Below, piece by piece: positions 14,623 through 58,626 of a DNA stretch of 64,000 bases (position 1 is the stretch's first letter; every line of letters starts with the position of its first letter). This stretch comes from an uncultured Gammaproteobacteria bacterium. Its GTDB lineage: Bacteria; Patescibacteriota; Patescibacteriia; UBA1558; 2-01-FULL-52-15. The translations under genes and the position numbers were made by a program. The notes under the pieces are model-generated. The model was not told the DNA's origin. It did not search any database and saw nothing but the letters and a program-made list of their open reading frames with translations. The DNA is taken from assembly GCA_964517065.1 (NCBI GenBank), contig CAZFBK010000001.1, positions 41,734-105,733 of the forward strand, written 5' to 3'.

Positions 14623-14629
14623 CGTTAAT

Positions 14630-18790: not shown

Positions 18791-18791
18791 A

Positions 18792-19923: not shown

Positions 19924-19926
19924 AGT

Positions 19927-22678: not shown

Positions 22679-22800
22679 AATGAATCAATTATAGCCGTTT
22701 ATAGTAAACCTGGCTATCAAAAGTAACACCGACCGACTTAAATAGTTATTCCTTTTGTTCGTGCTATACTAAACTTAGTTCGTATATACATAGTTTATAT

Positions 22801-23484: not shown

Positions 23485-23616
23485 AATAGGCATAATTGAC
23501 AAAAAAGCCCCATCATGATAAGTTTTGACCACTTAAATTGTTACTTACAACTGACGATTTTAAGCCATATTCCATGGTGAAAGCCATGAGAATCCTTATC
23601 AATTAAGGTTAAAACC

Positions 23617-24108: not shown

Positions 24109-24201
24109 AAATCAGGGTCAGGATAAAGGGTCAGGGAGTCCAAATTCTCTATCCTTATCTTCAAACCCTGACCCCGACCCTAATCCCTAACCCTTAATAC
24201 T

Positions 24202-24660: not shown

Positions 24661-24759
24661 TAAGCAGGGACAGGGTCAGAATTAAGGGTCAGAAGGCCCT
24701 CACATTCACCTACTCAAACCCTGACCCCGACCCTAATCCCTAACCCTAATAAATTACTT

Positions 24760-24978
24760 ATGATCGATTCCAAAGAAAAAAAATATTGCTTCTTCTGCGT
24801 TAATTCTGTTAATCATATTGATTATAAGAATACTCAGATGTTGCAGCGATTCTTGTCTTCTTATGCCAAGATCGTGCCAAAACGCCGCAGTGGTGTCTGC
24901 TCCAAGCATCAGCGTAATCTAGCACAAGCTATCAAACGCTCTCGTTTCTTGGCGTTGCTCCCCTACGTCGCGAAGTAA
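24760..24978 (+). CDS. rpsR: 30S ribosomal protein S18
   Basis: CFFC...IDYKN..LL.RF.S..GKI.PRR.SG.C.K.QR.L..AIKR.R.LAL.P conserved S18 sequence. Confidence 0.9.
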   Translation: MIDSKEKKYCFFCVNSVNHIDYKNTQMLQRFLSSYAKIVPKRRSGVCSKHQRNLAQAIKRSRFLALLPYVAK

Positions 24979-25110
24979 ATTAGAAGCAAGCAATAAATAG
25001 TAAGGAGTAAGGGTCTACCCAACTCACCTTAGCTGTTTACCCATACTTCTAACTTCTTACTCCTTTCTCCTACCCTAGCTCCCTACTCCTAACTTCTAAT
25101 CCCTACCCAA

Positions 25111-25668
25111 ATGTTAAGTTTAAGCGAAATCAAACTCGGCACCGTCGTGTCGATCAATAACGAACCGTATCAGGTCGTCTTCACCCAACATATCAAAGTA
25201 GCCCGCGGAGGTGCCACCCTGCGTACCAAGATGAAAAACCTCATTACCGGCTCAACCTTAGAGAAATCTTTCTCAGGCTCAGACAAAGCCGAGGAAGCAG
25301 ACCTGGAGCGCACCGAAGCCAACTATCTCTATCAACAAAATGGCAACGCTGTCTTCATGGATAATGTCAATTTTGAACAGTATGAATTCCCCAGCGATGG
25401 ACTCGGCGAGATGCTGCCCTATCTGAAAGAAGGTCAGACTGTTGATGTTATGATTTATAATGGCAAAGCAGTCACCGTTGCCTTACCGAAGAAAATTACC
25501 CTTCTTGTCACCTCTGCTCCTCCCGGAGTCCGTGGCGATACTAGCGGCTCAGCCACCAAGACCTGTACGGTAGAAACCGGACTGGAAATCCGCACCCCAC
25601 TTTTCATCAAAGAAGGCGACTCTATCGTCATCAACACTGAAACCGGTGATTACGTAGAGCGAACTTAG
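25111..25668 (+). CDS. efp: Elongation factor P
   Basis: 185 aa. EF-P N-terminal KOW-like region and OB domains. Typical length. Confidence 0.9.
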   Translation: MLSLSEIKLGTVVSINNEPYQVVFTQHIKVARGGATLRTKMKNLITGSTLEKSFSGSDKAEEADLERTEANYLYQQNGNAVFMDNVNFEQYEFPSDGLGEMLPYLKEGQTVDVMIYNGKAVTVALPKKITLLVTSAPPGVRGDTSGSATKTCTVETGLEIRTPLFIKEGDSIVINTETGDYVERT

Positions 25669-25724
25669 GTGAGCTCGGAGTAGCCTGTCCCGAGCTTGTC
25701 GAGGGATAGAAAGAGTAGCCGCCT

Positions 25725-25771
25725 AAAATAACAAAAAACTGTTCCCCTTGGAAACAGTTTTTTGTTATTTT
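25725..25771. terminator. Bidirectional rho-independent terminator between efp (+) and a convergent minus-strand operon
   Basis: About 19-bp perfect stem AAAATAACAAAAAACTGTT ... AACAGTTTTTTGTTATTTT. Confidence 0.7.
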
Positions 25772-25912
25772 AGGTAAACCCTAAACTCGAAATTCTAAAC
25801 GCCAGGACCAAACGCCCCAGAGCCCCTCTTCGCCAAGAGGGGGTATCCGATGAAATATTTTACTATATACAATCTGCAGAATATCTTGGAAAAAATAAAA
25901 TTTCGCAATACC

Positions 25913-25986
25913 GCCCACTACCTGGTTTCTGCGAGACTTGTACTCAAGGCAAAGCAGTCCAGTTATTATATTGAGTAGTTTCTATA
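25913..25986. repeat. About 70-bp dispersed repeat, copy A (GGTTTCTGCGAG...GCAGTCCAG...TATATTGAGTAGTTT)
   Basis: Shares about 75% identity with 40325-40390. The two copies bracket the giant-protein operon. Confidence 0.6.
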
Positions 25987-26010
25987 CCGACAAACATTTT
26001 GTATTACTAT

Positions 26011-27273
26011 TTATAACAACACAAAACGCTTGTCGGTATACTGTACCTGTCGCCAGCGCCACTGACCCGCTGCCACATCAATATACACCGGCGGTGTGGG
26101 CAGCTTCATCACCTGACTGAGGTATTCTGCTGCCATAGCAGAGTCTGCCGGCTGCAGCTGTATTTTGTCTTCAAGTAATAATTGCAAAAATAATGTCCAA
26201 TTGACCGCTGACCATTCACTCTGCCACAACGTTTTGGCCCGATCACCGAAGCGTACATTGATATAGCGACGAAGAATTCCGATATAACGCTGATCTGAAC
26301 GTAATAATTCGGATAGGTATTGCTTCTCAGCCAAAAGCGTCAGAGCCACCAGAGCACGTTCATGTTCGCTTAGACCAATAGCATTCCACAGGAGATCAGC
26401 CAGACGACTCCCCTCTCCACCACTCTCGACCGTCAGTCCATCCTGCAAACGATCAACCTGTAGCTGTAACTTGGCTACATACTGATGGTATTGATCCATA
26501 AGATCATCGACATCAGCAACTTGACTCATCTGCATCCGCGGTTGCGCCTCACCGACTTCGGCAATATTCAAGAAATTCTCAGTCATCGTCAGACGCATCG
26601 GACGTGCTTCATTGTATGAAGCCAGGAAATTCAGCAAGTTATCTTTCTCATCTTGTGACAGACGTTTCGCGTTGACACTGCGGACTAAATATTGACTACG
26701 GATGAGATTATCAGAGGCTTCAGCTCCGGCGAAGTGCAAATAATCCTTCAGCCAGTTTTCCAGCGTCGGCTCGATCTGTCTACCCGCCTCGTCTGTAATA
26801 TAATTCTTGGTCAGGAACAAATCTTTGTTGGCAACATTCTCCCCCATGAAATCCCTTATGGGTTGGATCACAGCGTCATCATCCGGTTGTTCTATCAGCT
26901 CAGCTTCTGGACTGGACGTCGGCGGAGCCTTCAGTTCTGGCACTACTGCCGGCACTTTACCGCCGAGACGCAGGATCAATCTGTCAACGTCACCAAGATA
27001 TATTTGCAATGGCCAGAGACGGAGATAGGCGAAATCACGTGCTAACTCCAAAATATCAATGTTCTTTAGATCTAATTTTGATAGAGCTACGTGAAACTCA
27101 AGTACGGGGATCTCCTTGGTAATTACTGATATCAGAACTTGCAATACCTGCTGCAATTGGGATGGTGTCAGATGATATATAGTAGCAATAGTATGATTGA
27201 TGTCAGTGCTACGCTCAGCAAAAACAACAGCTTGAACTTCTGGTGGTAGACTTTGTAATGTTTGAGGCGACAT
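26011..27273 (-). CDS. Hypothetical protein, paralog of the adjacent 144-aa protein (shared about 85-aa N-terminal domain)
   Basis: N-terminus LQSLPPEVQAVVFAERSTDINHTIATIYHLTPSQLQQVLQVLISVITKE aligns with the 27280-27714 product. Confidence 0.5.
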   Translation of the reverse strand: MSPQTLQSLPPEVQAVVFAERSTDINHTIATIYHLTPSQLQQVLQVLISVITKEIPVLEFHVALSKLDLKNIDILELARDFAYLRLWPLQIYLGDVDRLILRLGGKVPAVVPELKAPPTSSPEAELIEQPDDDAVIQPIRDFMGENVANKDLFLTKNYITDEAGRQIEPTLENWLKDYLHFAGAEASDNLIRSQYLVRSVNAKRLSQDEKDNLLNFLASYNEARPMRLTMTENFLNIAEVGEAQPRMQMSQVADVDDLMDQYHQYVAKLQLQVDRLQDGLTVESGGEGSRLADLLWNAIGLSEHERALVALTLLAEKQYLSELLRSDQRYIGILRRYINVRFGDRAKTLWQSEWSAVNWTLFLQLLLEDKIQLQPADSAMAAEYLSQVMKLPTPPVYIDVAAGQWRWRQVQYTDKRFVLL

Positions 27274-27279
27274 AAATAA

Positions 27280-27714
27280 CTATTTCTCTTGCGGTAGCGT
27301 ACCACCAAGAGATTGTAATAAGATTTCGACCCCACCGATCCATTCCCGAAGCGGCCAGAGACGCAGATATACCAAATCAAGCATTAATTGTTCGAGATCT
27401 ACCCCTGGCAAATCTAGTGTTGCTATAGCTTCCTTAAAATCACTAGCCGGTAACTCTTTAGTAATCACAGCAATAATAATCTGCAATATCTGCTGTAATT
27501 GAGCGCTTGTCAACCTATGAATTACTGCAATGTTATGATTTATATCAGACGTACGTTGCTGAAAAACCACTGATTGAATCTCCTCCGGTAATGTCTGCAG
27601 TGTATAAGATATTCTAGATTCTTTCATGTTATTATGTAGCTTTCGTAGGTCTAACCTGGGGTTTCTTTGGAAGTTTCGGCGGTGTCTTGCCACCAGCATG
27701 GAAAACCGAAGCAC
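27280..27714 (-). CDS. Hypothetical protein, short paralog of the 420-aa protein
   Basis: LQTLPEEIQSVVFQQRTSDINHNIAVIHRLTSAQLQQILQIIIAVITKE. Same domain as the neighbour. Confidence 0.5.
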   Translation of the reverse strand: MLRFSMLVARHRRNFQRNPRLDLRKLHNNMKESRISYTLQTLPEEIQSVVFQQRTSDINHNIAVIHRLTSAQLQQILQIIIAVITKELPASDFKEAIATLDLPGVDLEQLMLDLVYLRLWPLREWIGGVEILLQSLGGTLPQEK

Positions 27715-30118
27715 CGGCTTCTGCGTAATACTGATTTCTTTCTATCTGAGCGTTATCATACGCCTCAGCTAGATTTGAAATCGTTTCCCATTCCTTCTCC
27801 ATCGTGGCTAAATTTTTGTCACCGCTTGCATTGACACGGGCATCGGCGAAAGTATCAGCTTCCATTATCTGCTTAACCACACGTGGATCAGCCGCTTTGG
27901 CGTGTTTGATGAGTATTTCCCTTTGTGTCACGTTGCCCATCTCACCAGCACCTTTTATCTGAGTGTGACTTAACTCTGGAGCGATAACCTTTAGTTGCTC
28001 TGGGTCTAACCTGACAATTTGTTCAGCTTTCAAAATACCGACAGTGTTCTTAACCGCAGGGTCCTTAGGGTTTGCAGCTAAGAGCGTCTGAGCCTGTTTT
28101 ACAAACTCATCAGCATCTAATCTCGCCATTATACCCAATGACTTCTCATTATTATGATAGGTTTTAGCATATGCCTTGGAAAACGTCTTTTGAGCTTCTT
28201 TTGTTTGTCTCTTAATACCTTTTTCTATATCATCACTCGAACCACCTGCTGCACTGAACCCATCCAAAATAGACTTCCTCATTGTATCTGGTAATTTCTC
28301 AAAGGAATCCGCGTGAATACCTGCAATCAGTTTATCCGCTTCCCCCTTAGCTACTGACGCCACAGCGATTTCATTTCGGGTCTTCTCATTACTAATACGA
28401 CTCCAATTCTGTTGTTCGAAGTTCTCCAAATCTTTCTCCATAGTTTGACCTCCCGCTTTCAGAGCCTCATGAGCAGCATCAACATATTGTTCATTTTTCC
28501 CATTCTTGAATTCGCCGTCAGATACGAGATTAGCCACAGCCGCAGCCGCCCCATTGCGATCCACATCATGTATAGCATTTAGTCTCGTCTGCACCGGATC
28601 ATATTTCATAGCTTTACGCTTAGCCTCAATATCCTGGGCCTTCAGAGTGGAATCCATACGAGCAAACTCTCGAGCAGCCCGATGAGCTGGATTCAGCGCC
28701 GCACCACCCATGACTTGGATTGTACCCTTAGCCACAGTCCTCGTCACATCACCAGCAAAACGTCCAACCTTTTCACCTGCTACTGAGCTCACTCCTCTCT
28801 GAACATTACTGGCCAGTCTACCGGTAACCATATTCGTCAACTGATTACCCCTATCAAGCAGATTTGCTGCCCCACCGATCGGCATAGCAGCCAGTGACCG
28901 AGCTGTACCAACGAGTCCGCCAGCGCCTGAGCGACCCACCAAAACCGACTTACCGATACCGGTCAGCTTACCAGAAGCTTTCTTGGAAATACCAGCACCG
29001 ACAGTACCAAGCTTGCCCGCCATCATCAGAGAACCAAACAGTAAAGAAATAGCCACAAAGAAACGAATCAGACTTTTGGCCGCTGAAGTATTCGAAGCGC
29101 TTGATGGAGCGTTGGTCGTGCTGTCTGTCACTACACTGACAGATGAAGAGCTGCTATCGGTGGCACGGTCACTGATCGTTCCAGAGAGCACTCCCGGTCC
29201 GCCTTCATTCACCACCGCGAAGCTCAACCAGAGGAAAAAAGCCAAGGTCGGTCCGAGAACGAGGTATTTCGATAAATTATCCCACCACTCCAGATAATAT
29301 TTGCTGGCTGTCGGTAAGGTACTGCAAAGGAAGGCTACTGGAGACAGGATGATGATAAAGACAAACATGATGATACGCATCAGGAAGAGGAAGGTAATGA
29401 CACTGACCACTACTAAGGTGACGAGAAGCATGATCCCACCGAGACCAATCTGAAGCAGAACCGTCAAAATATTGGCCTGAGGGAAATCAGAGCCCTGCCA
29501 CAGCGTCATCCAACCGGTCAATCCTAATAATTTCGGGAAGCCTCCCTGGATAGCATCGAGGAAGGCATTGACGAAGGTCAGCGTCACCGCCTGAGAAAGA
29601 TCAATGAAGAATAAGGTAATTGTTTTGCTGAAATTAATCAAAATAGCCATCAGGATCAAACGACGAAGATTCTGCTGATAGCCATACCGACCACTTTTCA
29701 CAATCGTACCGACCGCCACTACTACCAGGATGAGGATGAAGAACATATTACTGAGATCACGCAAAACCGTCCAACCTTTGGTGACGATAGCCTCATCACC
29801 AAAACCCTGATAACTCAAGACCCATACCATGACATTCGTCACGAGGGCGAGGATCCAACCCGGAATATAGATAAAGGCTAAATAAAATATGAATGCTAAT
29901 CCCTTTGCTACAAATGATAATGGACCAGCGCCGTCTTGTACCGCAGTGGCGGTCGCACTACCGACTGGAGCACCGGTATCCACATCCTGAGCCCACACCA
30001 CCCGCACAAAAACTAATCCAACGAGACAGATAAATAAACCTAAGCCCAACCAGTACTTACTTGTTGGCTTTTGTGTCCAGGTACGGATAGCGTGGAATGT
30101 TGCAGTGAAAAATTTCAT
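27632..30118 (-). CDS. Polytopic membrane protein. Signal peptide, about 7 TM helices and a long soluble C-terminal region. VirB6/TrbL-like topology.
   Basis: 828-aa ORF. Hydrophobic helices across residues about 70-370. Start codon overlaps the giant gene's stop (TAATG). Confidence 0.5.
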   Translation of the reverse strand: MKFFTATFHAIRTWTQKPTSKYWLGLGLFICLVGLVFVRVVWAQDVDTGAPVGSATATAVQDGAGPLSFVAKGLAFIFYLAFIYIPGWILALVTNVMVWVLSYQGFGDEAIVTKGWTVLRDLSNMFFILILVVVAVGTIVKSGRYGYQQNLRRLILMAILINFSKTITLFFIDLSQAVTLTFVNAFLDAIQGGFPKLLGLTGWMTLWQGSDFPQANILTVLLQIGLGGIMLLVTLVVVSVITFLFLMRIIMFVFIIILSPVAFLCSTLPTASKYYLEWWDNLSKYLVLGPTLAFFLWLSFAVVNEGGPGVLSGTISDRATDSSSSSVSVVTDSTTNAPSSASNTSAAKSLIRFFVAISLLFGSLMMAGKLGTVGAGISKKASGKLTGIGKSVLVGRSGAGGLVGTARSLAAMPIGGAANLLDRGNQLTNMVTGRLASNVQRGVSSVAGEKVGRFAGDVTRTVAKGTIQVMGGAALNPAHRAAREFARMDSTLKAQDIEAKRKAMKYDPVQTRLNAIHDVDRNGAAAAVANLVSDGEFKNGKNEQYVDAAHEALKAGGQTMEKDLENFEQQNWSRISNEKTRNEIAVASVAKGEADKLIAGIHADSFEKLPDTMRKSILDGFSAAGGSSDDIEKGIKRQTKEAQKTFSKAYAKTYHNNEKSLGIMARLDADEFVKQAQTLLAANPKDPAVKNTVGILKAEQIVRLDPEQLKVIAPELSHTQIKGAGEMGNVTQREILIKHAKAADPRVVKQIMEADTFADARVNASGDKNLATMEKEWETISNLAEAYDNAQIERNQYYAEAGASVFHAGGKTPPKLPKKPQVRPTKAT

Positions 30119-33100
30119 TAGTTTGTCGGTGCTTTAATTTTGATAACATCGTCACTTCCTCCGCCACCATAGACTACATCTGCCGAGCCAGAGCAACCGC
30201 TACCTACCGCGCTCCAGAGATTATTAGCACACCAGCCCCAATTGTCTTGAATACTAACTCTCGGTTTGAAGCAAGCATAGCCAGCCTCACAACCAGCGGT
30301 ATAGTTCGAATCATAATGATAGACATGGAAGTAGTTGCGAATACCTTCTTCACAGGCTTGTGGTGTACCGGCGAAATCCAGAGTACTGCCGTTGCCCCAG
30401 GTATAGTTGAAAGCTAATGGTTGGAAATTCGAAATTGTACTAGTGGTCAAAGCTAAGGCAGGATCGCACTGGGGCCAGTTATTCTTATACAATCCAATGT
30501 TACTCTGCACCGAGCCATCACCCCAATCAATCTTGATACTACGGATCGGCATATGATCTTTGTAGGCCATGGCGAAGAAACTAATATTGGCTAACAAATT
30601 TGGCTTCTTATCTTCTGTGATCGTGCCGTTGGTCTGTCCATTGACGGTGAAATTACCAACTTTGCCGAGTGTACACTGACCGGAGTCAGAAGCACAAATG
30701 GCTTCAGCGATGATAGGACCGAAGTTAGTATCAGCATAATATTTGGAATCGTGTGATTGCGTGCCCTGCGCTGAAGATGATGGCATAGTAGCATCCAATG
30801 GTAAAGCCTTCGAGGCCACAGCATTCGCACTTCCATAATCACAGTTTGGGTCAGTGTCTGGATTACATAATTTCTTATACGTGTCTGGTTGGAAGGTACA
30901 ATACGGCTGACCTTCACATGTCTGTCCATTCAGACAGTCAGCATCGATAGAACAGGTTGTTTTCGAAATGGAGCAACGTTTATCTGCATAAGTTGTAACT
31001 TGACTTGCAAGCTTACATTTAGCATCTGGAGCCTGACAAATTTGATTTCCGCTATTATCAGTCTTATAACCATCGAGCTTCTGTCCCAGTGCATTGGTAG
31101 TGTCATCGTAGCAATCCTGAGGGTTTTTGAACCAACGATTAGCGGCATTCTCATCAAAAGCAGGGCCGACACAAAGATGCGCATTCGCTGGGGCACAGAA
31201 GGTCGCTTTATTCAAAGTTGGTATTTTAGAAGTACAATCACTCACCGTACTACATTCTATTACTGTCCAACCATTACCACCAAGCACTGTGTCATGACAC
31301 AAATCTTTACCACGACCATTGTCAGCGCACTCCATGTGAGCTGTCGAAGCTTGACAGACAGTTGTTGAGCTTGGGGGCACATAAGCACAAGTGTAACGAT
31401 TGTTCTCAACTACCGAGCAATCCTTTTGTGCCACCACTGTTCTATTAGATTCGGTCATATAGGGTGTACAGGCTGACAAACAGGACAATTCGTTAGAGAA
31501 CGTCGCTTCGCATTGACCATTCGAATTAGCAATAAATCCCGAGGCACAGGTGATGCCACATGATCTATTACCCCAGGGTGAATTAATACAATTTGAAACT
31601 GCAGTACATTTATTTTCTTCCTTCGATATAACACAGGCACTATCATTAGAACAATTCTCTCCGCCGTATAATTTACTATCACAAACACTATAGACACAGG
31701 TGTTACCGAGTGTATAACGATAAACCCCGAAAACTCGCTGGAATATTGAACGTAAGTTTATGATACCGTCGGCGTAGGTCTGGTATGGTTGATCCACCTT
31801 ACCAAACTTCCCTGGCGTCATCCACCCATCAACATAAACCCGACTACCCTTCTGACCTAATAACCCGCAAATACCGTCATCGTTTGCACAGACATAGGGA
31901 CTACCCGCTCGCGGTACGGTTCCGATCGATTTCAAATCTAAACGAGGGAAATCAGAGGGTTCAAGGCCAGATGATGGTACAGCTGAGCCAAAAGGAGCTG
32001 CGTCTTGATTTAAAGTGTAATTTGGAGCGCCGCTTGTTCGGGGGTCAGAACTAATTTTATAAGTATCGCCGTTAGCCAATTTGAAATCACTCCAGAAAAG
32101 ATTCGTAATAGCAGCATTGTCACCCCGAGGAGTTACAGCTTGAGCCAGATAGCTACAAGCGGCATACGGCTCAGAATCACCAAAGAATGTTCGACCAAGC
32201 AGTTGCGAGTGATTATTAGCGTCAGTGTATTGAATACGTAATGTTTCACGATCATAATCAGCCTCACACTGGTCTGTTAGTCTATATCGATTACCGTCGA
32301 ACCCATCTTTGACATCGACGATATTACCAACACAATTATCGACTGTTCGCCAACCGCTGCCGTCATTAATTTGAGAAATTGGTAACACAGCAACCGGATG
32401 GTCAATGCCACTGAATATGCCTCCTCCGCAGTTCTGACCTAGCTCATATGCAAAATACTTACCGTCAATTACACGACGTTGATCCTTCAGGCCGGCCCCA
32501 TGAACAGTTGGATCTTCTGTTGAGTTACTATCTAATGCTTGCCCATTTGCATCCACTTTAATGAAAGTTCCCGGTTTTTCAATATCCGAAGCACTATCAA
32601 GACAATCAATTGTAAACTTTCGACGAATTTCTTTGACACCTACTTCAGCACAATAATAGGCCGGAGCTTTATAGGAATAACCTGCTTCACGGTATTGATT
32701 AAAGTAATCTGTACCTCCCGGTGCGATATCGACTGGCAACCAAGACAAACAAGCGTACTGTGTCGGAGAAGCATTGATATGGGTACTGGTATCTGGCTCC
32801 AGACAATATCCCGGCCAGTTCAGATAAACATCGCTACGTCGCAGTTGAATAGGGTTACCGCCCGGACATTGGGTATCAATCGAGGTGGTATTAGTTTTGT
32901 CATTAACATTCTCAACTGTTTTGCAGGCAGAACCATCCAAACTTCCGCCGTCGCAAATACAGGTCGGTACTTCGGTACCGCCCAGAGGACCATTGATAGA
33001 ATAATATCTGACAGCTGATGTTCCTCCATACTGCATTTTGTAATACCCTGTCTCACAGGAAGCGACGGAGCTGTCGCAGATGTTGGCCTGCTGAAATCCA

Positions 33101-36100
33101 AAAGTAACTTTCCTGGTGGAGCTCTGTGCCCCACTGGACAAGCTCTGGGGGAAAGGGGCATCTTGCTCAGCATAAGCGCGGGTAGAAACTTTCAGCACGA
33201 ACGGTGAGATCGGATCAAACCTACTACCGTCAATACCGACAGCACATTCGGCCTTATCATTATGATTGAAGACTCTACCGATATCTCCGGGGCCGCATTT
33301 GGCATAGCCGGTGTCTCCATACTGACTGCCTGAGCCATTCGGATCTGTACAAGCACCAGTACTACTGACACAGTCAACGAACTTGACTAGGCGATAGTCA
33401 GGCTTGAGAGGATCCGGTCCGTCTTTTTTGGCATTGATACTGATATCCAATAAATGCATATTATCTACCGGGTAGCGATTGTACATCGACATACCAGAAT
33501 AATCAGTTGCCTGATAGCGGGTATCGCGAGTGACATAGCTAGCATAATCCAGCTTGGTCTGACTCTCCGGTAGCCAGTTGGCACAATTCAGTAGATCGCC
33601 GCTGGTACTATACTTATCGCATAGTCCAACTTCTGAGCAAATCTGTCGGTAGCCTTTGGTCTGCGGGTCAAAGATCTGGGAGCTACTCTTGCAAGCCAGC
33701 CACTGTGAACATTCACGATCACGATTAACTTTGATCACCCTGTTTGCATCATTGGTACAATCATGGAGTTGCTGATCCGAGGAGCTCTGATCACAGACAA
33801 CAGGACTGACAGGCTTACCGCCGGCCTTATCGCTAGCCAGATAGGTCAGGTAGCTGTTGTACGTTTTGTTGCTGTCATTGACATCGTCAAACAAGATACA
33901 GCCATTATTTTTACTGACCTGACCATTGCAGGTACTGTCATCGATATTGTCATTATTGAGGTAGAAATAAGATTTGACCTTTCGCAGACTGACATTCGAG
34001 AACTCTACCTTCGAGGCGCCACCGCAGGTACCACCACTGCAGGCGGTCAAGACAGGATTACAAGACTGACCACTATTGGTACAGGCCGTATTGAAACAGT
34101 TAGGATTGTTCTCGTTATTCGCACCGGCTGGACAGCCAGTATTTGACTGCTGATAATAACCACTGGAGACACGGAAGGTTGGCTCGCAGTAGATCAGCTC
34201 ATCCCCTTGTGAATCAGAGCCAATGTTCGCCACGACGTTCAGACTTTGAATACCGTCTCGCTTCTTGATATCGGCCCCGACATAGTACTCTGTCAGATGA
34301 TCACGACGATTGTTTTGTGAATCGGTTGATTGGTAGCCAAAGTTCGTTTCGCAGGTATAGCCGGCTCCCAGTGAGGAACAACGACTGTTATTGGTACAAG
34401 CTACATTGGTTTTATCAGTATTGCTCTGACAGTAGCCTTGCGCTGCTTTGTAACAGAAGTTATTACCGCCACCACACTGGTCACTAGTAGTACAAGGCTT
34501 GGTATAGTCTACTGTTACATCAAAGCCAGTGCCAACGATACCGCAATAATCCTGATCATAGGGACTATCCCAGACACAGCGCATCACAGCCTGTACAGCA
34601 CCACCGGATTTGTCATCGGCGAAAAAATTATCTATCCTGACGTCCGCACTGAGATTGTAGGTCTCAGTATTCTGCATCTTCAGATTGGTCTGCGGATCCT
34701 GAGTGAACAGTCTCTGGAAAAACAATCCCGTGCCCGTTGGATTGGTAGTAATAGTGGCAGTACCCCCATTGGCATTGAAGGTGGCAGCACTGTTCAACGT
34801 GTTTCCATAAGCACTCCAACTAGCCCAACCGGCGACACCGTTAGCAAAGGTGGCATTGGCAAAAAGATTCTCCCCGTCAGTAGCCTGCGTATCCACGAAT
34901 TCTGAACATTGATTCTGACTAGCAGGGCAGGTGCCGACCCAACCGCCGTAGAGTGGGTCTGCCGTCGGATGAATTACAAACTGATCTTCGGTGAATGGAG
35001 GGATACCTTGGGAATAACAACCAATCGGTGTCTGACCCGGTAGCAGACTCTCAGTCTGGAACCAGCCATTGAAAGACACCCCCTGAATACTGACGCCTTC
35101 TTTATAGGTACAGGTACGATTGTAGGGATCACGGTAGAAGGCCGATTGACCGCTGGCATCAGAATATTCTTGGCAGAACAATCCAGAATCCTGACATAAC
35201 TGCTGATCATAGCGATCAGGATCATTGATTTGGAAGACAGGGGTATATGATCTCACATAGTCTGGATCAGTCTCTGGTAGATCACGGTTAAAGGTCGGCC
35301 TACCCATCAGGGTACAGCCTTGATAGCTAGCTGAGCAGGATTTCTTCTGATCTATGACAACGTACTCCAACGCATCTGCCGGTACGGTGATCTGAGATTT
35401 GTCACCAGCATGATACATCTGCTGATAGGGAGAATTAGAGTTCTGGGTATTGACCACAGCCTGACAACCGACTGCCTCCTGACGACAAATCTGTGAGAAC
35501 GTACGGAGCGTCACGGTAGAATTATTCGGTCCTTTATACTCCTGACATCCCAGATTGGCTCCGACGAACGGTTGGTCACAGCTGGCAGGTGTGCTCCAAC
35601 TATTAGCCACCACAGTGAGGTTGCTGACCGATTCTTTCAAAATAATATTATCGACAAACACCTTCGGGCTGGCTTCCAGCTGCAACAACACCGCGTCGCT
35701 GGCCATAACTTCATCAACTTGAAGCGGTCCAAGCTGATATGGCTGCCAGCCAGTCGTCGGCTGGATCGGACTGACATTGGCAGCAGTGAATTCGCAGACG
35801 CCACCGTTACATTTGGTCTGACTGCCGTCAAACTTACCGAGGAAAGCTTTGAACTCTGTACCGGCTGTCTCAGCTTTGAGCCAGAAGCTAAGATAATATT
35901 CTCGTCCCGGAACTATTGAAGTGCCTTCGGAACGACTGACAACACCGGAAGTCCAGGACATGGAATGTCCGCCGGAATTGGTTGATTCAGCTGAGTATAT
36001 AGGAGTAACTGTTCCAGCCTGCCACGGTTGATATGAACCAGACTCAAAGGTGTCATTACTGACCTGACGCAGATTGTTGCCTTGGTTACCGCGGAATTCG

Positions 36101-39100
36101 GTACAACCGACGGCAGCTGCCGAGCAGGTTCGGCTTTCTTTATCCAGACCACTATACACTACTCCGCTACTACGGCGTAATGGATGACAGTTGCTATCAG
36201 CGAAAATAACTTTATCCTGCAAACGGAATTTGGAAACACCATCAGTGTCGAAGAATTCACGACAGTTTGGATCGGTACTGACATCGCCAGCCTGACAAGT
36301 CGCCTGTGTCGCTGCTGTGTCCTGACAGGTGGTGCCGCCGGGTGCCACGTTGGTACACGGACCGCCGTCAAGATTGCTCTTCAGTACCTGCCAGGTGCGG
36401 ACTTGGAAACCACTGGTATCACTACCTTCGAGTGTATAATAAGTAATACCAAAATTAGCAGCTACACACTGACGCAAGAAGCTATAGTAATGTTTACCCT
36501 CGCCACCAGCAGCTACTTCGTCCAAATTAGTGAAAGCACTACAACCAATATCAGTGGCGTTACATTGTTTGGCGCTACTAGCAATAAAGTTTACATTAGT
36601 CGAAGCTGCCGTTGGCTGCTCCATGGTTTCAAAAGCAGTTGGTAACTGTATATAGGTCTGATAGCCGACACATTCGGCGGGACAACGATCAGCATTCGTC
36701 ACGACACCCGGCACAGTAGGGCCGCCATTTGTTGGGCTGTACAGATTACAGCCAACTTCTTCAGCTTTGCAGCTGAAACGAGTACCATTGAGATACACTT
36801 TGCCTGCGCTACCATAATCATTGTAATTCGATGGGCTTGATCCCGGCTCAACTTTGACACCATCGATGTAGAGAGCTCCACAGCCAGCCAGTGATCCGAG
36901 GAAGACGGTCAACTGTTGATCAGGATTATCGAGATCAAAAGTATGCGTCAACTGAAAGCGTTGCCAATCGCCGGTATAATTCACCTGAGCACTGACTGCT
37001 GAGGTACTCTGAGAACCAAGTGCTGCATTCGCAGTACAGGCTGTCGTAACCTTACCATACCAAGAGAGCGTATAAGTGGCGCCAACCAGACGACCAGCGA
37101 CTGCCGTAGCAGATAGCTGTCCATCACCAACAAGCTTAATCGCCGAAGATCCAATATAGGAGTTATCCCCTGCAACGGTATAGGCATTAAAGTTTGTACC
37201 ATTAGCCGTCCAACCGCTGAAGCTGTCAGGCAACGTATCATTGATATAGTCACCGTTGGTTTTGTCGGTATCAATATTCAGCTGATAAGTATCAAAATTA
37301 CCGTTGGCCAAGAGATTGATACCGCCTGTCTGCGGATTGATAAACTCCTGACAGCCGGCATCCTGCTGGGAACAACTGGTTACTTTGTTATTGAGATAAA
37401 TACGGTCATTAGGATTCCACTGGTAATTTGGGTTAGCAGCTGTACCGGTATTTTCCTGATTGAGACTGTACCATGAGCAACCTGCCTGTCCGGCGTCGCA
37501 AGATTCCAAAGTATTCTGCAGATAGCTGTATTTGGCGCCATTATCACGACGAGTGAAAACCTGACAGGATGAATACTGCTCCTGACAGGACTCACCGCTG
37601 AAGCGCCAGATATTACGCTCTTGGGTACAATAGCCATATCCCCCAACGCAATTACCTTTGCTATCTTGTGCCAGACACGAAGGACGATCGACACAGACTT
37701 GCTGACGTTGATTACTAGTGACATCTTCCAATGTCGGACCGTATACCAGAGCTTTGCATTGGGTGGATGGCGCTGTCAGTACCCAATTTGGATCAATCAA
37801 ATGATAGAAAATATTAGCAACTGGGTCGAGGATACATTTCGGTCCATTATCGAAACAGTTCACGACCTCACCGAGTGTCACCGGCCGAGAGACAGGACTG
37901 AGGGCAGCAGCAATCTCCCAACCGAGTGGTAAGATACGATAACTACGCAGACGGGCAATATTTCCATAACAATAGCCATTTTGGAAACAGCTCTTATCTC
38001 CATTCTGTGAAGCGTTGAGATAGGATATCAATGGACGATCGGCTTGCAGATGTCCCTGAGCCAGAGCCTGAGCAACTGTTTCTTTATTATTAATGGCCGC
38101 CAAAAAGGTATTATCAATTGTACAATTATCCGGCTGAGCCAGTTTGCGATCTGGCGGACAGGCGGTCAAATTTTGCAAATAATCGAATTCGTCAATTTGC
38201 TCCACGTTGACTGTTTTCAAATCAGCGAAAAGCTCAGAGGCGGAGCCGAAGCGACGTAAATCAACTTTATTACGCAACTGGTTGATCAAAGAATCGCGTA
38301 GATTGGTCGTTCCGCCACCGTAGAGGTTTGATAATGACCAACTACCACTAATATATTTATTTAATAACTTAGCCGTTAATGATCTCGAAAATAACTTGGC
38401 GGCATTGATAAAGACGTCTTCTGTTTTGATCAATGAAGCTTCTAATAAAGCATCTCGATAGGCGTTCTCATCGATACCCATGACCTTCGCGCAGTGGACC
38501 AAAACATCATCAGAGATCTTAGCTCCTTTATCTTTGTATCCTTTGCAGGTCTGCTCGCTAATCTTGGCTACATCCGCTGCTAATTGAGCTCGTCGGTCAG
38601 CCTCACCGGTCAACTGCAAAAAAATCCCCAGATCATTTTGGTTCGGATCCACCAGCATACCGAGCAGACCTGTTCGCTGATTGGTCGACAAACCAACCAT
38701 AGCCTGTGCTAGCCATTGTCCTGAATCAAGTGACTGACCAAATTTTTTCCAATTTTCTTTAATCTGATTCAGTTCACATTTTGGCGGTTTCGGTGCCTGA
38801 CCGCCAATGTCAGAGATCACTCCTAAGGTGATATTCACCTGAGTATCAAGTGACGGAGCGCAGAGGTTCAAACCTGATCCTTTGAAAAAATCTTCTGACA
38901 AATTACCAATGAAATCACCGTAAGCAGCATCCCGTGAATCGTTCAGAACGCGCGCAAATTCTTTGGTTCTGACCAAAGGCTTCAGACCCACCCCTCCCTG
39001 AGCAATGAAGGTGGCAGTGTTATAAGCTAGATTATTTAGATACGTTTGCAAGGTAGTCTGAAACAGACTCTGGCCAATGATTTTATAATTACGCTCAAAA

Positions 39101-39318
39101 ATTGCAGAAATTTTATCAAACAGAACTTGCATCCGGTCTTGAGTCGGTATACCGCCAGGAGCCGAAGCGCCCAATGCTCCAAGAGCTCCGGATAGATTCG
39201 TGCCAGAATCTAAGGGAGGTGGAAGTCCCACCTGAGCTAAGGCCGGCGAGTAACTTAAGCCAACTAGAAAAAAACTGAGAATGAATACTAGGCTAGTAAA
39301 CTTAGAAAATAATTTCAC
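30118..39318 (-). CDS. Giant (3066 aa) secreted cysteine-rich repeat protein. Probable surface adhesin or host-interaction protein.
   Basis: Uninterrupted 9.2-kb ORF. Signal peptide MKLFSKFTSLVFILSFFLVGLSYSPALAQV. Hundreds of Cys in recurring C-x(4-8)-G-C-x-(E/W)-(F/Y) modules (for example CDAGQAGCSWY, CSAAAVGCTEF, QQDAGCQEF, CRQEAVGCQAV). No catalytic motif recognised. Confidence 0.75.
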   Translation of the reverse strand: MKLFSKFTSLVFILSFFLVGLSYSPALAQVGLPPPLDSGTNLSGALGALGASAPGGIPTQDRMQVLFDKISAIFERNYKIIGQSLFQTTLQTYLNNLAYNTATFIAQGGVGLKPLVRTKEFARVLNDSRDAAYGDFIGNLSEDFFKGSGLNLCAPSLDTQVNITLGVISDIGGQAPKPPKCELNQIKENWKKFGQSLDSGQWLAQAMVGLSTNQRTGLLGMLVDPNQNDLGIFLQLTGEADRRAQLAADVAKISEQTCKGYKDKGAKISDDVLVHCAKVMGIDENAYRDALLEASLIKTEDVFINAAKLFSRSLTAKLLNKYISGSWSLSNLYGGGTTNLRDSLINQLRNKVDLRRFGSASELFADLKTVNVEQIDEFDYLQNLTACPPDRKLAQPDNCTIDNTFLAAINNKETVAQALAQGHLQADRPLISYLNASQNGDKSCFQNGYCYGNIARLRSYRILPLGWEIAAALSPVSRPVTLGEVVNCFDNGPKCILDPVANIFYHLIDPNWVLTAPSTQCKALVYGPTLEDVTSNQRQQVCVDRPSCLAQDSKGNCVGGYGYCTQERNIWRFSGESCQEQYSSCQVFTRRDNGAKYSYLQNTLESCDAGQAGCSWYSLNQENTGTAANPNYQWNPNDRIYLNNKVTSCSQQDAGCQEFINPQTGGINLLANGNFDTYQLNIDTDKTNGDYINDTLPDSFSGWTANGTNFNAYTVAGDNSYIGSSAIKLVGDGQLSATAVAGRLVGATYTLSWYGKVTTACTANAALGSQSTSAVSAQVNYTGDWQRFQLTHTFDLDNPDQQLTVFLGSLAGCGALYIDGVKVEPGSSPSNYNDYGSAGKVYLNGTRFSCKAEEVGCNLYSPTNGGPTVPGVVTNADRCPAECVGYQTYIQLPTAFETMEQPTAASTNVNFIASSAKQCNATDIGCSAFTNLDEVAAGGEGKHYYSFLRQCVAANFGITYYTLEGSDTSGFQVRTWQVLKSNLDGGPCTNVAPGGTTCQDTAATQATCQAGDVSTDPNCREFFDTDGVSKFRLQDKVIFADSNCHPLRRSSGVVYSGLDKESRTCSAAAVGCTEFRGNQGNNLRQVSNDTFESGSYQPWQAGTVTPIYSAESTNSGGHSMSWTSGVVSRSEGTSIVPGREYYLSFWLKAETAGTEFKAFLGKFDGSQTKCNGGVCEFTAANVSPIQPTTGWQPYQLGPLQVDEVMASDAVLLQLEASPKVFVDNIILKESVSNLTVVANSWSTPASCDQPFVGANLGCQEYKGPNNSTVTLRTFSQICRQEAVGCQAVVNTQNSNSPYQQMYHAGDKSQITVPADALEYVVIDQKKSCSASYQGCTLMGRPTFNRDLPETDPDYVRSYTPVFQINDPDRYDQQLCQDSGLFCQEYSDASGQSAFYRDPYNRTCTYKEGVSIQGVSFNGWFQTESLLPGQTPIGCYSQGIPPFTEDQFVIHPTADPLYGGWVGTCPASQNQCSEFVDTQATDGENLFANATFANGVAGWASWSAYGNTLNSAATFNANGGTATITTNPTGTGLFFQRLFTQDPQTNLKMQNTETYNLSADVRIDNFFADDKSGGAVQAVMRCVWDSPYDQDYCGIVGTGFDVTVDYTKPCTTSDQCGGGNNFCYKAAQGYCQSNTDKTNVACTNNSRCSSLGAGYTCETNFGYQSTDSQNNRRDHLTEYYVGADIKKRDGIQSLNVVANIGSDSQGDELIYCEPTFRVSSGYYQQSNTGCPAGANNENNPNCFNTACTNSGQSCNPVLTACSGGTCGGASKVEFSNVSLRKVKSYFYLNNDNIDDSTCNGQVSKNNGCILFDDVNDSNKTYNSYLTYLASDKAGGKPVSPVVCDQSSSDQQLHDCTNDANRVIKVNRDRECSQWLACKSSSQIFDPQTKGYRQICSEVGLCDKYSTSGDLLNCANWLPESQTKLDYASYVTRDTRYQATDYSGMSMYNRYPVDNMHLLDISINAKKDGPDPLKPDYRLVKFVDCVSSTGACTDPNGSGSQYGDTGYAKCGPGDIGRVFNHNDKAECAVGIDGSRFDPISPFVLKVSTRAYAEQDAPFPQSLSSGAQSSTRKVTFGFQQANICDSSVASCETGYYKMQYGGTSAVRYYSINGPLGGTEVPTCICDGGSLDGSACKTVENVNDKTNTTSIDTQCPGGNPIQLRRSDVYLNWPGYCLEPDTSTHINASPTQYACLSWLPVDIAPGGTDYFNQYREAGYSYKAPAYYCAEVGVKEIRRKFTIDCLDSASDIEKPGTFIKVDANGQALDSNSTEDPTVHGAGLKDQRRVIDGKYFAYELGQNCGGGIFSGIDHPVAVLPISQINDGSGWRTVDNCVGNIVDVKDGFDGNRYRLTDQCEADYDRETLRIQYTDANNHSQLLGRTFFGDSEPYAACSYLAQAVTPRGDNAAITNLFWSDFKLANGDTYKISSDPRTSGAPNYTLNQDAAPFGSAVPSSGLEPSDFPRLDLKSIGTVPRAGSPYVCANDDGICGLLGQKGSRVYVDGWMTPGKFGKVDQPYQTYADGIINLRSIFQRVFGVYRYTLGNTCVYSVCDSKLYGGENCSNDSACVISKEENKCTAVSNCINSPWGNRSCGITCASGFIANSNGQCEATFSNELSCLSACTPYMTESNRTVVAQKDCSVVENNRYTCAYVPPSSTTVCQASTAHMECADNGRGKDLCHDTVLGGNGWTVIECSTVSDCTSKIPTLNKATFCAPANAHLCVGPAFDENAANRWFKNPQDCYDDTTNALGQKLDGYKTDNSGNQICQAPDAKCKLASQVTTYADKRCSISKTTCSIDADCLNGQTCEGQPYCTFQPDTYKKLCNPDTDPNCDYGSANAVASKALPLDATMPSSSAQGTQSHDSKYYADTNFGPIIAEAICASDSGQCTLGKVGNFTVNGQTNGTITEDKKPNLLANISFFAMAYKDHMPIRSIKIDWGDGSVQSNIGLYKNNWPQCDPALALTTSTISNFQPLAFNYTWGNGSTLDFAGTPQACEEGIRNYFHVYHYDSNYTAGCEAGYACFKPRVSIQDNWGWCANNLWSAVGSGCSGSADVVYGGGGSDDVIKIKAPTN

Positions 39319-39321
39319 AAC

Positions 39322-40110
39322 CTACTGTAAACTCTTAATTAAATCTTTCAGATCACTCGGAGGCAAGCGGTTCACTTCACTTTCTTTCAGACCTGCTTGT
39401 ACCAGAAATGTCCGCATGTCAGCCTCACTCAAACTATCGACATCAATAGGCTCTGACTGTAGATCAGCTGCTCGCACGATAGCGTCCATATAGACCAAAA
39501 GCGTATCATCGCTCAAATCATCCAAGGTCGCCTGATCCATACCGCTCTGGAGTAAAATACCGCGGAACTCTTTCAACGTTGCGTCTTTCAGACTTTGATT
39601 GGCGGGGCTGAATTCGGGTAATAAATCCGATAGTTTAGTATCAGGATTGATGAGACGAATCGTACGACAAGTCTCTCCGGTCTTACAGTTAGGATCTGTG
39701 CCTTTTTTGATCTCTGAGCCATCGGGAATACCGTCGCCATCAGTGTCTTTGAGATACGGACTGGTGTTATAGGTATAGACTTCATCATAATCACTTAAGC
39801 TATCGCCGTCAGTGTCCTTCTGCTTCAAAGCATCGGTGATCGCTGGATCAGTGGAGCTGGCCGTGGCGGCGATTTGCTTGATGTCAACTTTGAAAGGGCT
39901 AGTAATACCGTTGGTAATCAGCCAGCCTGCCAGTACCAGTGAGCTGAATCCGCAAAGACTGATCAGGAAAATAATAATTTTGGTGCCTCGATCCATCGGA
40001 GCGCGTCCTCTGATCTGAAGATATGAAGAACCACCTTCCTCAGTCTGGGGTGTGACTTCCTCAGGAATTAATTCTGCCTCTACTTGATTTGTTGGCGACA
40101 TGGAAACCAA
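39322..40110 (-). CDS. Membrane-anchored calcium-binding protein with thrombospondin type-3-like repeats (DxDxDGxxDxxE)
   Basis: TM segment IIFLISLCGFSSLVLAGWLI. DTDGDSLSDYDEV and DTDGDGIPDGSEI repeats. First gene of the operon, 4 bp upstream of the giant gene. Confidence 0.6.
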   Translation of the reverse strand: MVSMSPTNQVEAELIPEEVTPQTEEGGSSYLQIRGRAPMDRGTKIIIFLISLCGFSSLVLAGWLITNGITSPFKVDIKQIAATASSTDPAITDALKQKDTDGDSLSDYDEVYTYNTSPYLKDTDGDGIPDGSEIKKGTDPNCKTGETCRTIRLINPDTKLSDLLPEFSPANQSLKDATLKEFRGILLQSGMDQATLDDLSDDTLLVYMDAIVRAADLQSEPIDVDSLSEADMRTFLVQAGLKESEVNRLPPSDLKDLIKSLQ

Positions 40111-40123
40111 AAGTGTGTTTACC

Positions 40124-40232
40124 CCGCACCACTTTCGCTCAGCACTTTCAATATATTAGCGAAAACGATTGGAGCTTTACTTAAAATAATATCTCTACAT
40201 AACAGTCGGCAGTAGAAAGGTGGTGCGGGGTT
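40124..40232. promoter_or_regulatory. Long inverted repeat (15-bp arms CCCCGCACCACTTTC / GAAAGGTGGTGCGGGG) in the leader of the TSP3/giant-protein operon
   Basis: Perfect 15-16-bp arms separated by about 75 nt, immediately upstream of the start codon at 40110. Confidence 0.4.
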
Positions 40233-40324
40233 AAAAAATCTTTTATATTATAGCATGTTTCCGTCGCCACTGCCAAATATTTCACTACATGGGCGTAATA
40301 CGTAATTCGTAATACTAAGTTAGC

Positions 40325-40390
40325 ACCCACTTGGTTTCTGCGAGCCGCACTGGGCGAAGCAGTCTAGTCTATATATTGAGTAGTTTTTAT
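40325..40390. repeat. About 70-bp dispersed repeat, copy B
   Basis: ACCCACTTGGTTTCTGCGAG...GCAGTCTAG...TATATTGAGTAGTTT matches 25913-25986. A TTTCGCAATAACC 13-mer at 40428 matches TTTCGCAATACC at 25901. Confidence 0.6.
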
Positions 40391-40489
40391 AAGGAGGTTA
40401 TTAGAGATTGCTTCAATCGAGTACGAGTTTCGCAATAACCAGGACTGGGCCATAGTTTTGAATTTCTATATTTGAACTTGTTTACCCGC

Positions 40490-40526
40490 CCGCCTGCGAA
40501 GCGCAGCGAGTCGGGCGGGGAACTTA
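40490..40526 (-). terminator. GC-rich hairpin downstream of ksgA
   Basis: CCCGCCCG..CTGCGAAGCGCAG..CGGGCGGG nested hairpin directly after the ksgA stop. Confidence 0.5.
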
Positions 40527-40537
40527 GGATTTTGAAC

Positions 40538-41380
40538 TTAGAGTTTCTTGTTTACACTCAGAGTTATCCAATCAGATAACTCTAAATCCTGCGCCCTTAT
40601 CTTCACCGAAAGTTTACAAGCTAATAGCCACTCCTCCACCTCGGGCTTGGCTAATTTCAACCCAGCTGAGAGATTATTTACGAGAGTTTTGCGCCGTGAG
40701 CTGAAGCCAATACGGATCAGCTGCCAGACTTCTTCCTCGGGCGCTTGATAGTTCCAATGATGAAGCTGCTCGATGACCAACAAAGCAGAATCAACAGCTG
40801 GTGCAGGCCAGAAAGCCTTGCGTGAGACGATACGAGCGACCTTCGCCTGTCCGTAGAACTGTACTCCCAGAGACTGCTTGCTGTGATCACCGGCTTTGGC
40901 GACTATTTTCTCGGCTACTTCTTTTTGTACCAATAAGACAATAGTTGTAGGCAGCTGTTCAAATGAAAATAACTGACTAATAATCTTGCCTGTGATGTAA
41001 TACGGGATATTGGCGACAACTTTATAGCTCTGATTCTGCCTCAGAGCCAAAGCCTGATACAGCTCTGCCGGTTCAAGCTTGAGAAAATCATTTTTAATCA
41101 CTGTCAGATTTTCGTACTCTTCCGTTAACGAATCTAACAAAGGAAAAAGTCTGCGGTCCGACTCAATTCCCACGACCCGCGCTACTCGACGCGCCAGAGC
41201 AGTCGTCAGCGTACCCAGACCACTGCCTATTTCTAAAACAGTATCTTCAGGCTTAATCCCACCGACACGCAAACTATCCGCCACTACTGTCTCGTCAATC
41301 AAAAAATTCTGACCGCGATCAGTATCTGGCCGTAGTCGATAACGCTTGGCTAATAGCTGTGTTTCTTCTAATAAGCTCAT
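40538..41380 (-). CDS. rsmA: 16S rRNA (adenine1518/1519-N6)-dimethyltransferase
   Basis: GQNFLIDETVV and VLEIGSGLGTLT motifs. Confidence 0.85.
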   Translation of the reverse strand: MSLLEETQLLAKRYRLRPDTDRGQNFLIDETVVADSLRVGGIKPEDTVLEIGSGLGTLTTALARRVARVVGIESDRRLFPLLDSLTEEYENLTVIKNDFLKLEPAELYQALALRQNQSYKVVANIPYYITGKIISQLFSFEQLPTTIVLLVQKEVAEKIVAKAGDHSKQSLGVQFYGQAKVARIVSRKAFWPAPAVDSALLVIEQLHHWNYQAPEEEVWQLIRIGFSSRRKTLVNNLSAGLKLAKPEVEEWLLACKLSVKIRAQDLELSDWITLSVNKKL

Positions 41381-57529: not shown

Positions 57530-57533
57530 ACCT

Positions 57534-58622: not shown

Positions 58623-58626
58623 ATCT

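Follow-up and report, generated by a model that had tools for sequence, protein, structure and literature searches.

Giant cysteine-rich proteins encoded upstream of virB6 in type IV secretion loci of Patescibacteria: a candidate host-contact family

Secretion systems of type IV (T4SSs) are widespread in Patescibacteria and, in the one species tested, essential for epibiotic growth, and their role has been described as completely unknown (PMC11665869). According to a recent survey (Quinonero-Coronel et al., 2025; PMC12102498), the systems of this group are chromosomal, poor in relaxases and similar to the FATA class of mating-pair formation (MPF-FATA), with a VirB4 related to the Gram-positive conjugative class. 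The survey lists VirB4, TrsD, PrgI, VirB6 and VirB2-like pilins as their components, with VirB8-like proteins mostly missing, comF and KsgA as neighbors in ABY1-type genomes, and no adhesins detected in the loci (PMC12102498). Here we analyze a 64,000-nucleotide stretch of DNA (the window; GenBank assembly GCA_964517065.1, contig CAZFBK010000001.1, positions 41,734 to 105,733), in which a cluster of five minus-strand genes encodes a cysteine-rich giant protein of 3066 amino acids (aa) directly upstream of a VirB6/TrbL-family protein of 828 aa. The giant belongs to a family that is linked to virB6 in most ABY1-type genomes and offers a concrete candidate for a host-contact component. Alongside it we define two more families that lack annotation and accompany VirB6, those of a 420-aa partner and of a TSP3 membrane protein, and what the Patescibacteria T4SS touches and does becomes more directly testable.

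The window resembles the surveyed Patescibacteria T4SS in carrying VirB4, a TrsD/TraC-like protein, PrgI/VirB3, VirB6 and a VirB2-like pilin on a chromosome, and in its ABY1-type neighborhood, with a ComF-like gene at 11430-12086 and KsgA at 40538-41380. Since this set matches the system of PMC12102498, this conjugation-derived apparatus as such was already known, and the idea in a preliminary description of this DNA that it may be lineage-specific and undescribed has to be given up: the T4SS was surveyed in 2025, a scan of GTDB species representatives with the VirB6 alignment confirmed at least 587 relatives, and the giant has more than 1000 clusters. The closest named homologues of the cluster proteins come from Candidatus Komeilibacteria (Patescibacteria, the candidate phyla radiation or CPR group), and the remainder of the window has typical CPR gene content. 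The locus differs from the published description in two respects: the survey is silent on the Cys-rich family of about 3000 aa, the 420-aa partner and the TSP3 protein, and the two arms of the system are split in the window by S6/SSB/EF-P, VanY-like and methyltransferase genes. Literature searches aimed at the giant family found no description of it, and it is absent from the PMC12102498 survey; the giant family and its coupling to VirB6 are still new.

Among better-studied systems, the nearest positional parallel is R388, in which trwJ (VirB5) is followed by a small eex gene and then by trwI (VirB6), all adjacent, and VirB5 forms a stalk on top of a VirB6 pentamer (titles of PDB 7o3v and 8rt9). 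The likeness is one of gene position only, an exported protein being encoded immediately 5' of virB6; the giant, in contrast, has 3066 aa rather than the 226 aa of TrwJ, is Cys-rich, carries carbohydrate-binding modules (CBMs) and shows no detectable VirB5 similarity, while TrwI has 342 aa and the VirB6 of the window 828 aa with an extra alpha-solenoid domain. Because there is no homology, the correspondence between giant and VirB5 is an analogy only. As a member of the Patescibacteria, the organism is not known to have an outer membrane, unlike the proteobacterial hosts of T4SSs. In pCF10, large surface proteins (PrgA/PrgB/PrgC) are likewise encoded upstream, followed by a VirB6-like protein, a VirB3-like protein and VirB4 (PrgH-PrgI-PrgJ), but the giant has no LPXTG or other anchor and no PrgB-type Pfam match, and hhalign of the VirB6-family profile of the window against PrgH returned nothing. 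Rickettsiales offer a third comparison, as obligate host-associated bacteria whose T4SS loci include giant proteins and VirB6 paralogues with large extensions, such as Anaplasma VirB6-4 with up to 4322 aa (PMC7648143); in those loci the giant portion is fused to VirB6 as its C-terminal extension, whereas here it is a separate, putatively Sec-exported protein and the extension of VirB6 itself amounts to only about 430 aa. Legionella DotA, which together with IcmX belongs to the Dot/Icm 'protochannel' (PDB 9ngy), is of the type IVB class, and its partner is unlike the giant in size and composition.

The cluster had been described as five minus-strand genes that are almost free of gaps, and the coordinates in the list of open reading frames (ORFs) are identical to those claimed: the TSP3 gene (39322-40110, likely start the ATG at 40101), the giant gene with a GTG start (30118-39318), the 828-aa gene (27632-30118), a 144-aa ORF (27280-27714 in its longest form, from GTG 27714) and the 420-aa gene (26011-27273). 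Junctions read from the sequence agree as well: three nucleotides (GTT) separate the TAG stop of the TSP3 gene from the GTG of the giant gene, the giant stop and the 828-aa start share the overlap TAATG, and the 420-aa ATG follows the 144-aa stop after 6 nucleotides (nt). Through the TAATG junction, the giant and VirB6 genes of the window are translationally coupled. The reported overlap of the 144-aa and 828-aa genes exists only in the longest ORF, and the form that begins at ATG 27627 (27280-27627, about 115 aa) starts 4 nt past the 828-aa stop. As all sequence that can be aligned, either with the 420-aa paralogue or with the orthologue in the closest relative (locus L010), lies 3' of this ATG, the real small gene is probably the non-overlapping one of about 115 aa.

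To place the cluster among its relatives, we fetched 80 loci and located homologues by tblastn with the window proteins, counting only loci with enough flanking sequence. On the same strand and no more than 10 kb upstream of VirB6, 46 of 59 loci encode a homologue of the giant. The gap from the giant stop to the VirB6 ATG was measured in 49 loci. In 20 of them, which span 26-44% VirB6 identity, the two overlap or are no more than 81 nt apart, and the TAATG overlap itself is also present in L010 and L084. Another 17 of the 49 have a gap of 0.65-1.56 kb, space for one small gene. In L075, a complete Falkowbacteria genome, the intervening gene (9175-9840) codes for a membrane protein of 221 aa whose N-terminus is charged and which contains two hydrophobic helices. 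The distant relative L004 is organized in another way: its giant homologue is followed (18720-26861) by a second, unrelated giant of 2713 aa and not by VirB6, and further downstream by a protein of at least 1715 aa rich in LamG and DUF2341 domains. The 2713-aa protein was considered as a fused VirB6 and rejected, as it has only 4 Cys and one transmembrane (TM) segment, at the N-terminus, and BLAST does not match it to the giant of the window.

The linkage extends to the rest of the secretion system. PrgI, TrsD and VirB4 homologues occur within 10 kb downstream of VirB6 on the same strand in 50 of 63 loci, contiguously in 32 of these, and in 14 loci the giant, VirB6, the 420-aa protein, a 412-aa protein, PrgI, TrsD, VirB4 and a 201-aa protein form one co-directional contiguous array. 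In the Falkowbacteria locus L005 the series VirB6, 393-aa protein, 504-aa protein, PrgI, TraC-like protein, VirB4, 206-aa protein and DsbA is likewise contiguous. In the window, genes for S6/SSB/EF-P, a VanY-like protein and a methyltransferase part the VirB6 arm from the VirB4 arm, and in the Komeilibacteria loci L001-L003 and in L006 both arms flank the same inserted block of S6, SSB, S18, EF-P and methyltransferase genes. In loci of the Komeilibacteria type a housekeeping gene never stands between giant and VirB6, although such insertions split the T4SS arms. The 828-aa and 420-aa genes are thus conserved neighbors of PrgI/VirB3, TrsD and VirB4, and these data support the view that the cluster is the membrane (VirB6) arm of a T4SS whose VirB4 gene lies nearby, much as the preliminary description had supposed when it pointed to a separate VirB4-like locus about 5 kb away and to a possible membrane/export arm of a type IV-like system. 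The VirB4 gene is indeed at 16895-18790, in an arm that ends 4.8 kb from the cluster.

The giant carries the signal peptide that had been proposed for it (aa 1-28, SYSPALA/Q; 39235-39318, minus strand), read from the sequence and its hydrophobic segment and ending in a typical ALA-Q cleavage motif; a hydrophobic N-terminal segment is found in almost all of its 27 collinear homologues, including every full-length one; most of the 27 are 2300-3700 aa long. The giant contains 134 Cys (4.4% of residues), and the 27 homologues have 61-162 each. In an alignment of 26 family members about 40 Cys never vary, and the great majority of invariant positions hold the structural residues Cys, Gly, Trp or Pro. 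The most frequent Cys-Cys spacing in the giant is 7. A strict module, C-x(3-12)-C-x-[EW]-[FY], occurs 7 times compared with 0.16 expected in shuffled sequences (maximum 3), and a relaxed form 14 times compared with 2.1 (maximum 8). Recurring Cys modules thus exist as first described, in about 12-14 copies by the shuffle-tested motif count and not in the dozens then reported.

Collinear conservation divides the giant into three conserved blocks (aa 60-1480, 1780-2230 and 2870-3030) and two variable ones (aa 1500-1780 and 2250-2870). The search against hidden Markov models (HMMs) suggested at the outset recognized only the beta-sandwich module CBM_4_9 (PF02018), which matches three stretches with 47.1 bits in total, above the gathering score. 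The first CBM_4_9-like module (aa 668-808; 36895-37317) scores 30.2 bits alone against a cutoff of 25.9, the second (about aa 1085-1235; 35614-36066) is a stretch of the full-length scan with approximate boundaries, and the third (aa 1484-1563; 34630-34869) is partial and below threshold (E=0.002); all are on the minus strand. A C-x6-C-x-E-F module closes 7-10 residues ahead of each CBM (aa 649, 1065 and 1464), and similar Cys modules follow about 10-40 residues past the first two (aa 850 and 1247), so that the CBM_4_9-like modules appear to be displayed between short disulfide-clamped connectors of the form C-x6-GC-x-E-F/Y. More than 85% of the giant is unmatched by any known domain, and since this holds for each protein of about 3000 aa, the family merits domain models of its own. 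In the C-terminal block an IDWGDG motif recalls PKD-type domains and has no HMM support.

We searched a profile of the N-terminal domain (aa 28-625) against 1.84 billion representatives of 50%-identity clusters. It matched 1830 proteins at E<=1e-3, 1178 of them even at E<=1e-30; among the best 150 matches about five sixths are 2500-3800 aa long, the shorter ones possibly being fragments, and the domain lies at about residue 30-640 in almost all. By these profile matches, the giants form a large, coherent protein family.

We lean, with moderate confidence, towards reading the giant as a Sec-exported, disulfide-stabilized, glycan-binding host-contact component of the Patescibacteria T4SS, occupying the gene position of VirB5. 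We infer the role in adhesion or host contact from where the gene lies and, in its product, from the signal peptide, the abundance of Cys and the CBM_4_9-like modules. In such a scheme the Sec pathway would export the giant, its 134 Cys would be oxidized outside the cell, possibly by the DsbA-like protein of the VirB4 arm, and it would remain attached to the extracellular face of the VirB6 channel, where the single-pass TSP3 protein may help to hold it as a calcium-dependent membrane tether. The giant would then serve as the host-contact element, its CBM_4_9-like modules binding glycans of the host surface and its two variable blocks tuning host specificity, and would take the place that VirB5 holds in proteobacterial systems, judging by the position of a gene for an extracellular protein 5' of virB6. 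The 420-aa protein and its truncated duplicate would be cytoplasmic accessories that may dock on the C-terminal domain of VirB6.

Several observations weigh against this reading. It associates giant and VirB6 by the order of their genes. Between 11 and 13 of the 59 VirB6 loci are without a giant within 10 kb, 12 of the 49 measured loci have 2.5-5.7 kb of other genes between giant and VirB6, and 13 VirB6 loci, 12 of them with an upstream giant, show no VirB4 within 10 kb downstream; moreover, unrelated KsgA, EF-P and S6 genes also travel with the cluster in these streamlined genomes, in which gene order is conserved. At the protein level, the 828-aa protein of the window has no Pfam match even at E<=1 and none in NCBIfam, and the giant has no recognizable anchor, catalytic or adhesin domain apart from CBM_4_9, neither an LPXTG motif nor a C-terminal TM segment nor a Pfam adhesin domain being found. 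An AlphaFold model of its N-terminal 598 residues, based on a 17-sequence alignment, reached a predicted local distance difference test (pLDDT) score of only 46.7; this poor model predicts helices over the first 340 residues or so, is confident only at residues 378-517 approximately, and gave no fold match in Foldseek. A VirB5-like N-terminus was rejected at the sequence level, hhalign against R388 TrwJ giving a probability of 0.4.

A more far-reaching form of the host-contact reading, which we regard as possible and offer only tentatively, makes the giant the missing extracellular half of the Patescibacteria T4SS. The giant would be a glycan-binding, disulfide-stabilized stalk or fiber on VirB6 that replaces both VirB5 and the pilus tip, docks the ultrasmall cell on its host and provides a conduit for material, possibly DNA or nutrients, between the two cells, with the variable blocks setting the host range.

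Alternatively, the giant may be a general envelope or surface-layer protein, or a stand-alone adhesin, of ABY1-type Patescibacteria that neighbors virB6 through frozen gene order and plays no part in the T4SS. Such a reading gains plausibility from the synteny of housekeeping genes, with KsgA, MFS, EF-P, S6 and SSB genes keeping to the cluster just as faithfully, and from the one fifth of the VirB6 loci that are without a nearby giant; the loci in which several kilobases of genes intervene, and export of the giant by Sec and not by the T4SS, point the same way. We nevertheless consider it unlikely, since the overlap or short gap persists in 20 loci over a wide range of VirB6 divergence, since giant, VirB6, 420-aa and 412-aa genes, PrgI, TrsD and VirB4 are contiguous and co-directional in 14 loci, and since in Komeilibacteria-type loci no housekeeping gene entered between giant and VirB6 where the T4SS arms did get split.

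We judge it improbable, on present evidence, that the giant is a secreted host-attacking factor, such as a glycan-targeting lytic protein or toxin of the sort suggested for giant proteins in predatory Omnitrophota, placed in the T4SS locus for co-regulation only. CBM_4_9 modules are typical of carbohydrate-active enzymes, giant genes beside secretion systems in Omnitrophota have been linked to cell-wall degradation (bioRxiv 10.1101/2023.11.21.568195), and the large unannotated portion of the protein could hide a catalytic domain; however, a Pfam scan of the giant in seven segments at E<=1 found no domain beyond CBM_4_9 and no catalytic domain, the precomputed Pfam matches of 28 giant homologues include no catalytic domain either, and the structural character of the invariant residues also argues against this idea. 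That the 9.2-kb ORF is an artefact of assembly or annotation (a collapsed or chimeric repeat, or fused genes), as its unusual length, GTG start and mostly unrecognized sequence might suggest and as the preliminary description had allowed, is already refuted, because there are no tandem or dispersed DNA repeats in 26000-40600, full-length collinear homologues of 3016-3119 aa align at 44-77% identity over 98-99% of the giant in independent NCBI, JGI and Logan assemblies, and more than 1000 cluster representatives are of similar length.

On the evidence of related sequences and a predicted structure, the 828-aa protein is an extended VirB6, consisting of a VirB6-like membrane domain (aa 66-393), a Gly-rich linker and an alpha-solenoid of about 330 aa. 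A first search of its family yielded 221 matches, all of about 800-1400 aa, named where a name is given as Patescibacteria, candidate-phylum or unclassified bacteria with one NCBI exception, a Sediminibacterium sp. The VirB6 assignment follows from four lines of evidence. Of 40 aligned family members, 7 match TrbL (PF04610), with a best E value of 6.5e-8. In one of them (P0107), the TrbL match covers residues 105-294 with 32.6 bits (cutoff 25.9), and this stretch aligns to residues 76-428 of the window protein at 35% identity (E=7e-62). The AlphaFold model of the 828-aa protein (mean pLDDT 73) is confident in a membrane domain of long helices (aa 66-305 and 345-393, pLDDT 85-93) and also in an all-alpha C-terminal domain (aa 490-806). 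Finally, Foldseek places R388 stalk complex chains (8rtd_L and 8rt9_F) at ranks 2-3 of the matches to this model, weakly, with probabilities of 0.89-0.99 and E values of about 0.05-0.09, in agreement with the solved VirB6 fold; the stalk chain 7o3v_F bears the name TrwI. The 828-aa protein shows 7-8 hydrophobic segments, all of them between aa 23 and 368, above a threshold of five TM helices, and the polytopic VirB6/TrbL-like topology originally proposed for it is borne out by these segments and by homologues that pass the TrbL threshold over the same region.

Direct profile comparisons of the VirB6 family added little: hhalign against R388 TrwI gave a weak local match only (LSPLAFL..P..Y..WW, E=0.009, probability 4.5%), and a search of PDB sequences returned only coiled-coil noise from the C-terminal domain; it was the comparison of folds that decided the matter. 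The C-terminal domain, the predicted alpha-solenoid (aa 480-806; 27701-28681, minus strand), resembles armadillo and importin-like repeats in Foldseek and is putatively cytoplasmic. The 828-aa protein also carries a basic Pro/Lys tail; the canonical VirB6, TrwI, has neither tail nor solenoid.

Upstream of the giant, the TSP3 protein matches TSP3_bac (PF18884) with 33.7 bits against a cutoff of 25 and has two repeats (DTDGDSLSD and DTDGDGIPD), an acidic C-terminal region and a single TM segment at aa 45-63; the DxDxDG calcium-binding protein noted earlier is therefore recovered both above the gathering score and by its motifs. A homologue stands directly upstream of the giant in 22 of the 38 loci where the 5' end of the giant is visible. 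Downstream, the 420-aa protein is devoid of TM segments and of Cys. The members of its family all measure about 410-420 aa, and the family was detected directly after VirB6 in 34 of 67 loci; from these features the protein is predicted to be a conserved cytoplasmic partner encoded immediately downstream of VirB6 across the family. Neither it nor the 144-aa protein has a Pfam or NCBIfam match, and a profile of the 420-aa family found nothing below E=0.3 among PDB sequences. The 144-aa and 420-aa proteins share a domain, as had been seen at first inspection, with 53% identity over 104 aa (E=3e-30). Because no second copy was found outside the window and its closest relative L010, the small gene is best explained by a recent tandem duplication, specific to this lineage, of the part that encodes the N-terminal domain of the 420-aa protein; the product of the small gene, about 115 aa long, is likewise predicted to be cytoplasmic.

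The cluster probably has a promoter at 40247-40276 (minus strand), where TTGGCA, an 18-nt spacer and an extended -10 element, (TG)TATAAT, make the top match of the region (11/12). The probable 5' leader (40111-40246, minus strand) of about 130 nt contains an 11-bp GC-rich long-range stem, CCCCGCACCAC...GTGGTGCGGGG, shortly before the TSP3 start, and folds with z = -3.1; no Rfam family matches the leader. Ahead of the TSP3 gene lies an unusually long intergenic region, 427 bp compared with 110-170 bp in L001 and L002. We found no convincing terminator inside the cluster, the 2 minus-strand terminator-like sites being at chance level in shuffles, which is consistent with a single operon.

The other T4SS arm (12959-21165), also entirely on the minus strand, contains no VirB6 of its own. 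It begins with a 412-aa protein of no assigned family, followed by a PrgI/VirB3-like protein (19465-19923; PrgI 30.4 bits, cutoff 27), a TrsD/TraC-like protein (18792-19538; NCBIfam TrsD, E=1.4e-8) and VirB4 (16895-18790; P-loop_TraG, E=6.7e-26, and CagE_TrbE_VirB), whose 90%-identity cluster consists entirely of metagenomic proteins with the label 'type IV secretory pathway VirB4 component'. Right after VirB4 lies the gene for a 201-aa single-pass protein (16351-16956), which is kept at this place in many loci; its counterpart in L005 (18656-19276) has a weak NTF2-like match (NTF2_YvbJ, E=2.7e-4). This match and the conserved position suggest a candidate for the VirB8-like component that is mostly missing in the published survey. 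A 172-aa membrane protein and a 418-aa protein are encoded between this gene and that of a membrane-anchored DsbA-like thioredoxin with a CPAC motif (13990-14622). DsbA homologues lie downstream of VirB4 in 10 of 80 related loci by tblastn, and in L005 by Pfam, and a DsbA-like gene in this arm fits a need to oxidize Cys-rich exported components. The arm ends with a 344-aa T4SS-pilin-like fusion (12959-13993), whose T4SS_pilin score of 26.6 bits is exactly the cutoff of 26.6; it joins a VirB2-like two-helix pilin domain to a C-terminal domain of about 200 aa and has 10 Cys in the whole protein. Pfam scans of the ORFs in the window, which covers 64 kb of the genome, detected no relaxase or VirD4.

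Outside the T4SS locus, the window contains several other unusual genes. LVIVD repeats, found in beta-propeller surface proteins, occur in two adjacent proteins of about 810-820 aa (1709-6597, minus strand) and in a 372-aa protein (62546-63664, minus strand). Three consecutive paralogous genes on the plus strand (56009-60234) encode proteins of 506, 362 and 535 aa with PsbP-like domains, which are unexpected in a non-photosynthetic CPR genome, and a single 294-aa ORF (54350-55234, plus strand) joins NusB and NUDIX hydrolase domains. Among loci L009-L088, many records of metagenome-assembled genomes with a clear Patescibacteria T4SS carry the title 'uncultured Gammaproteobacteria bacterium' and one is called 'Planctomycetota bacterium', titles that appear to be mislabelled.

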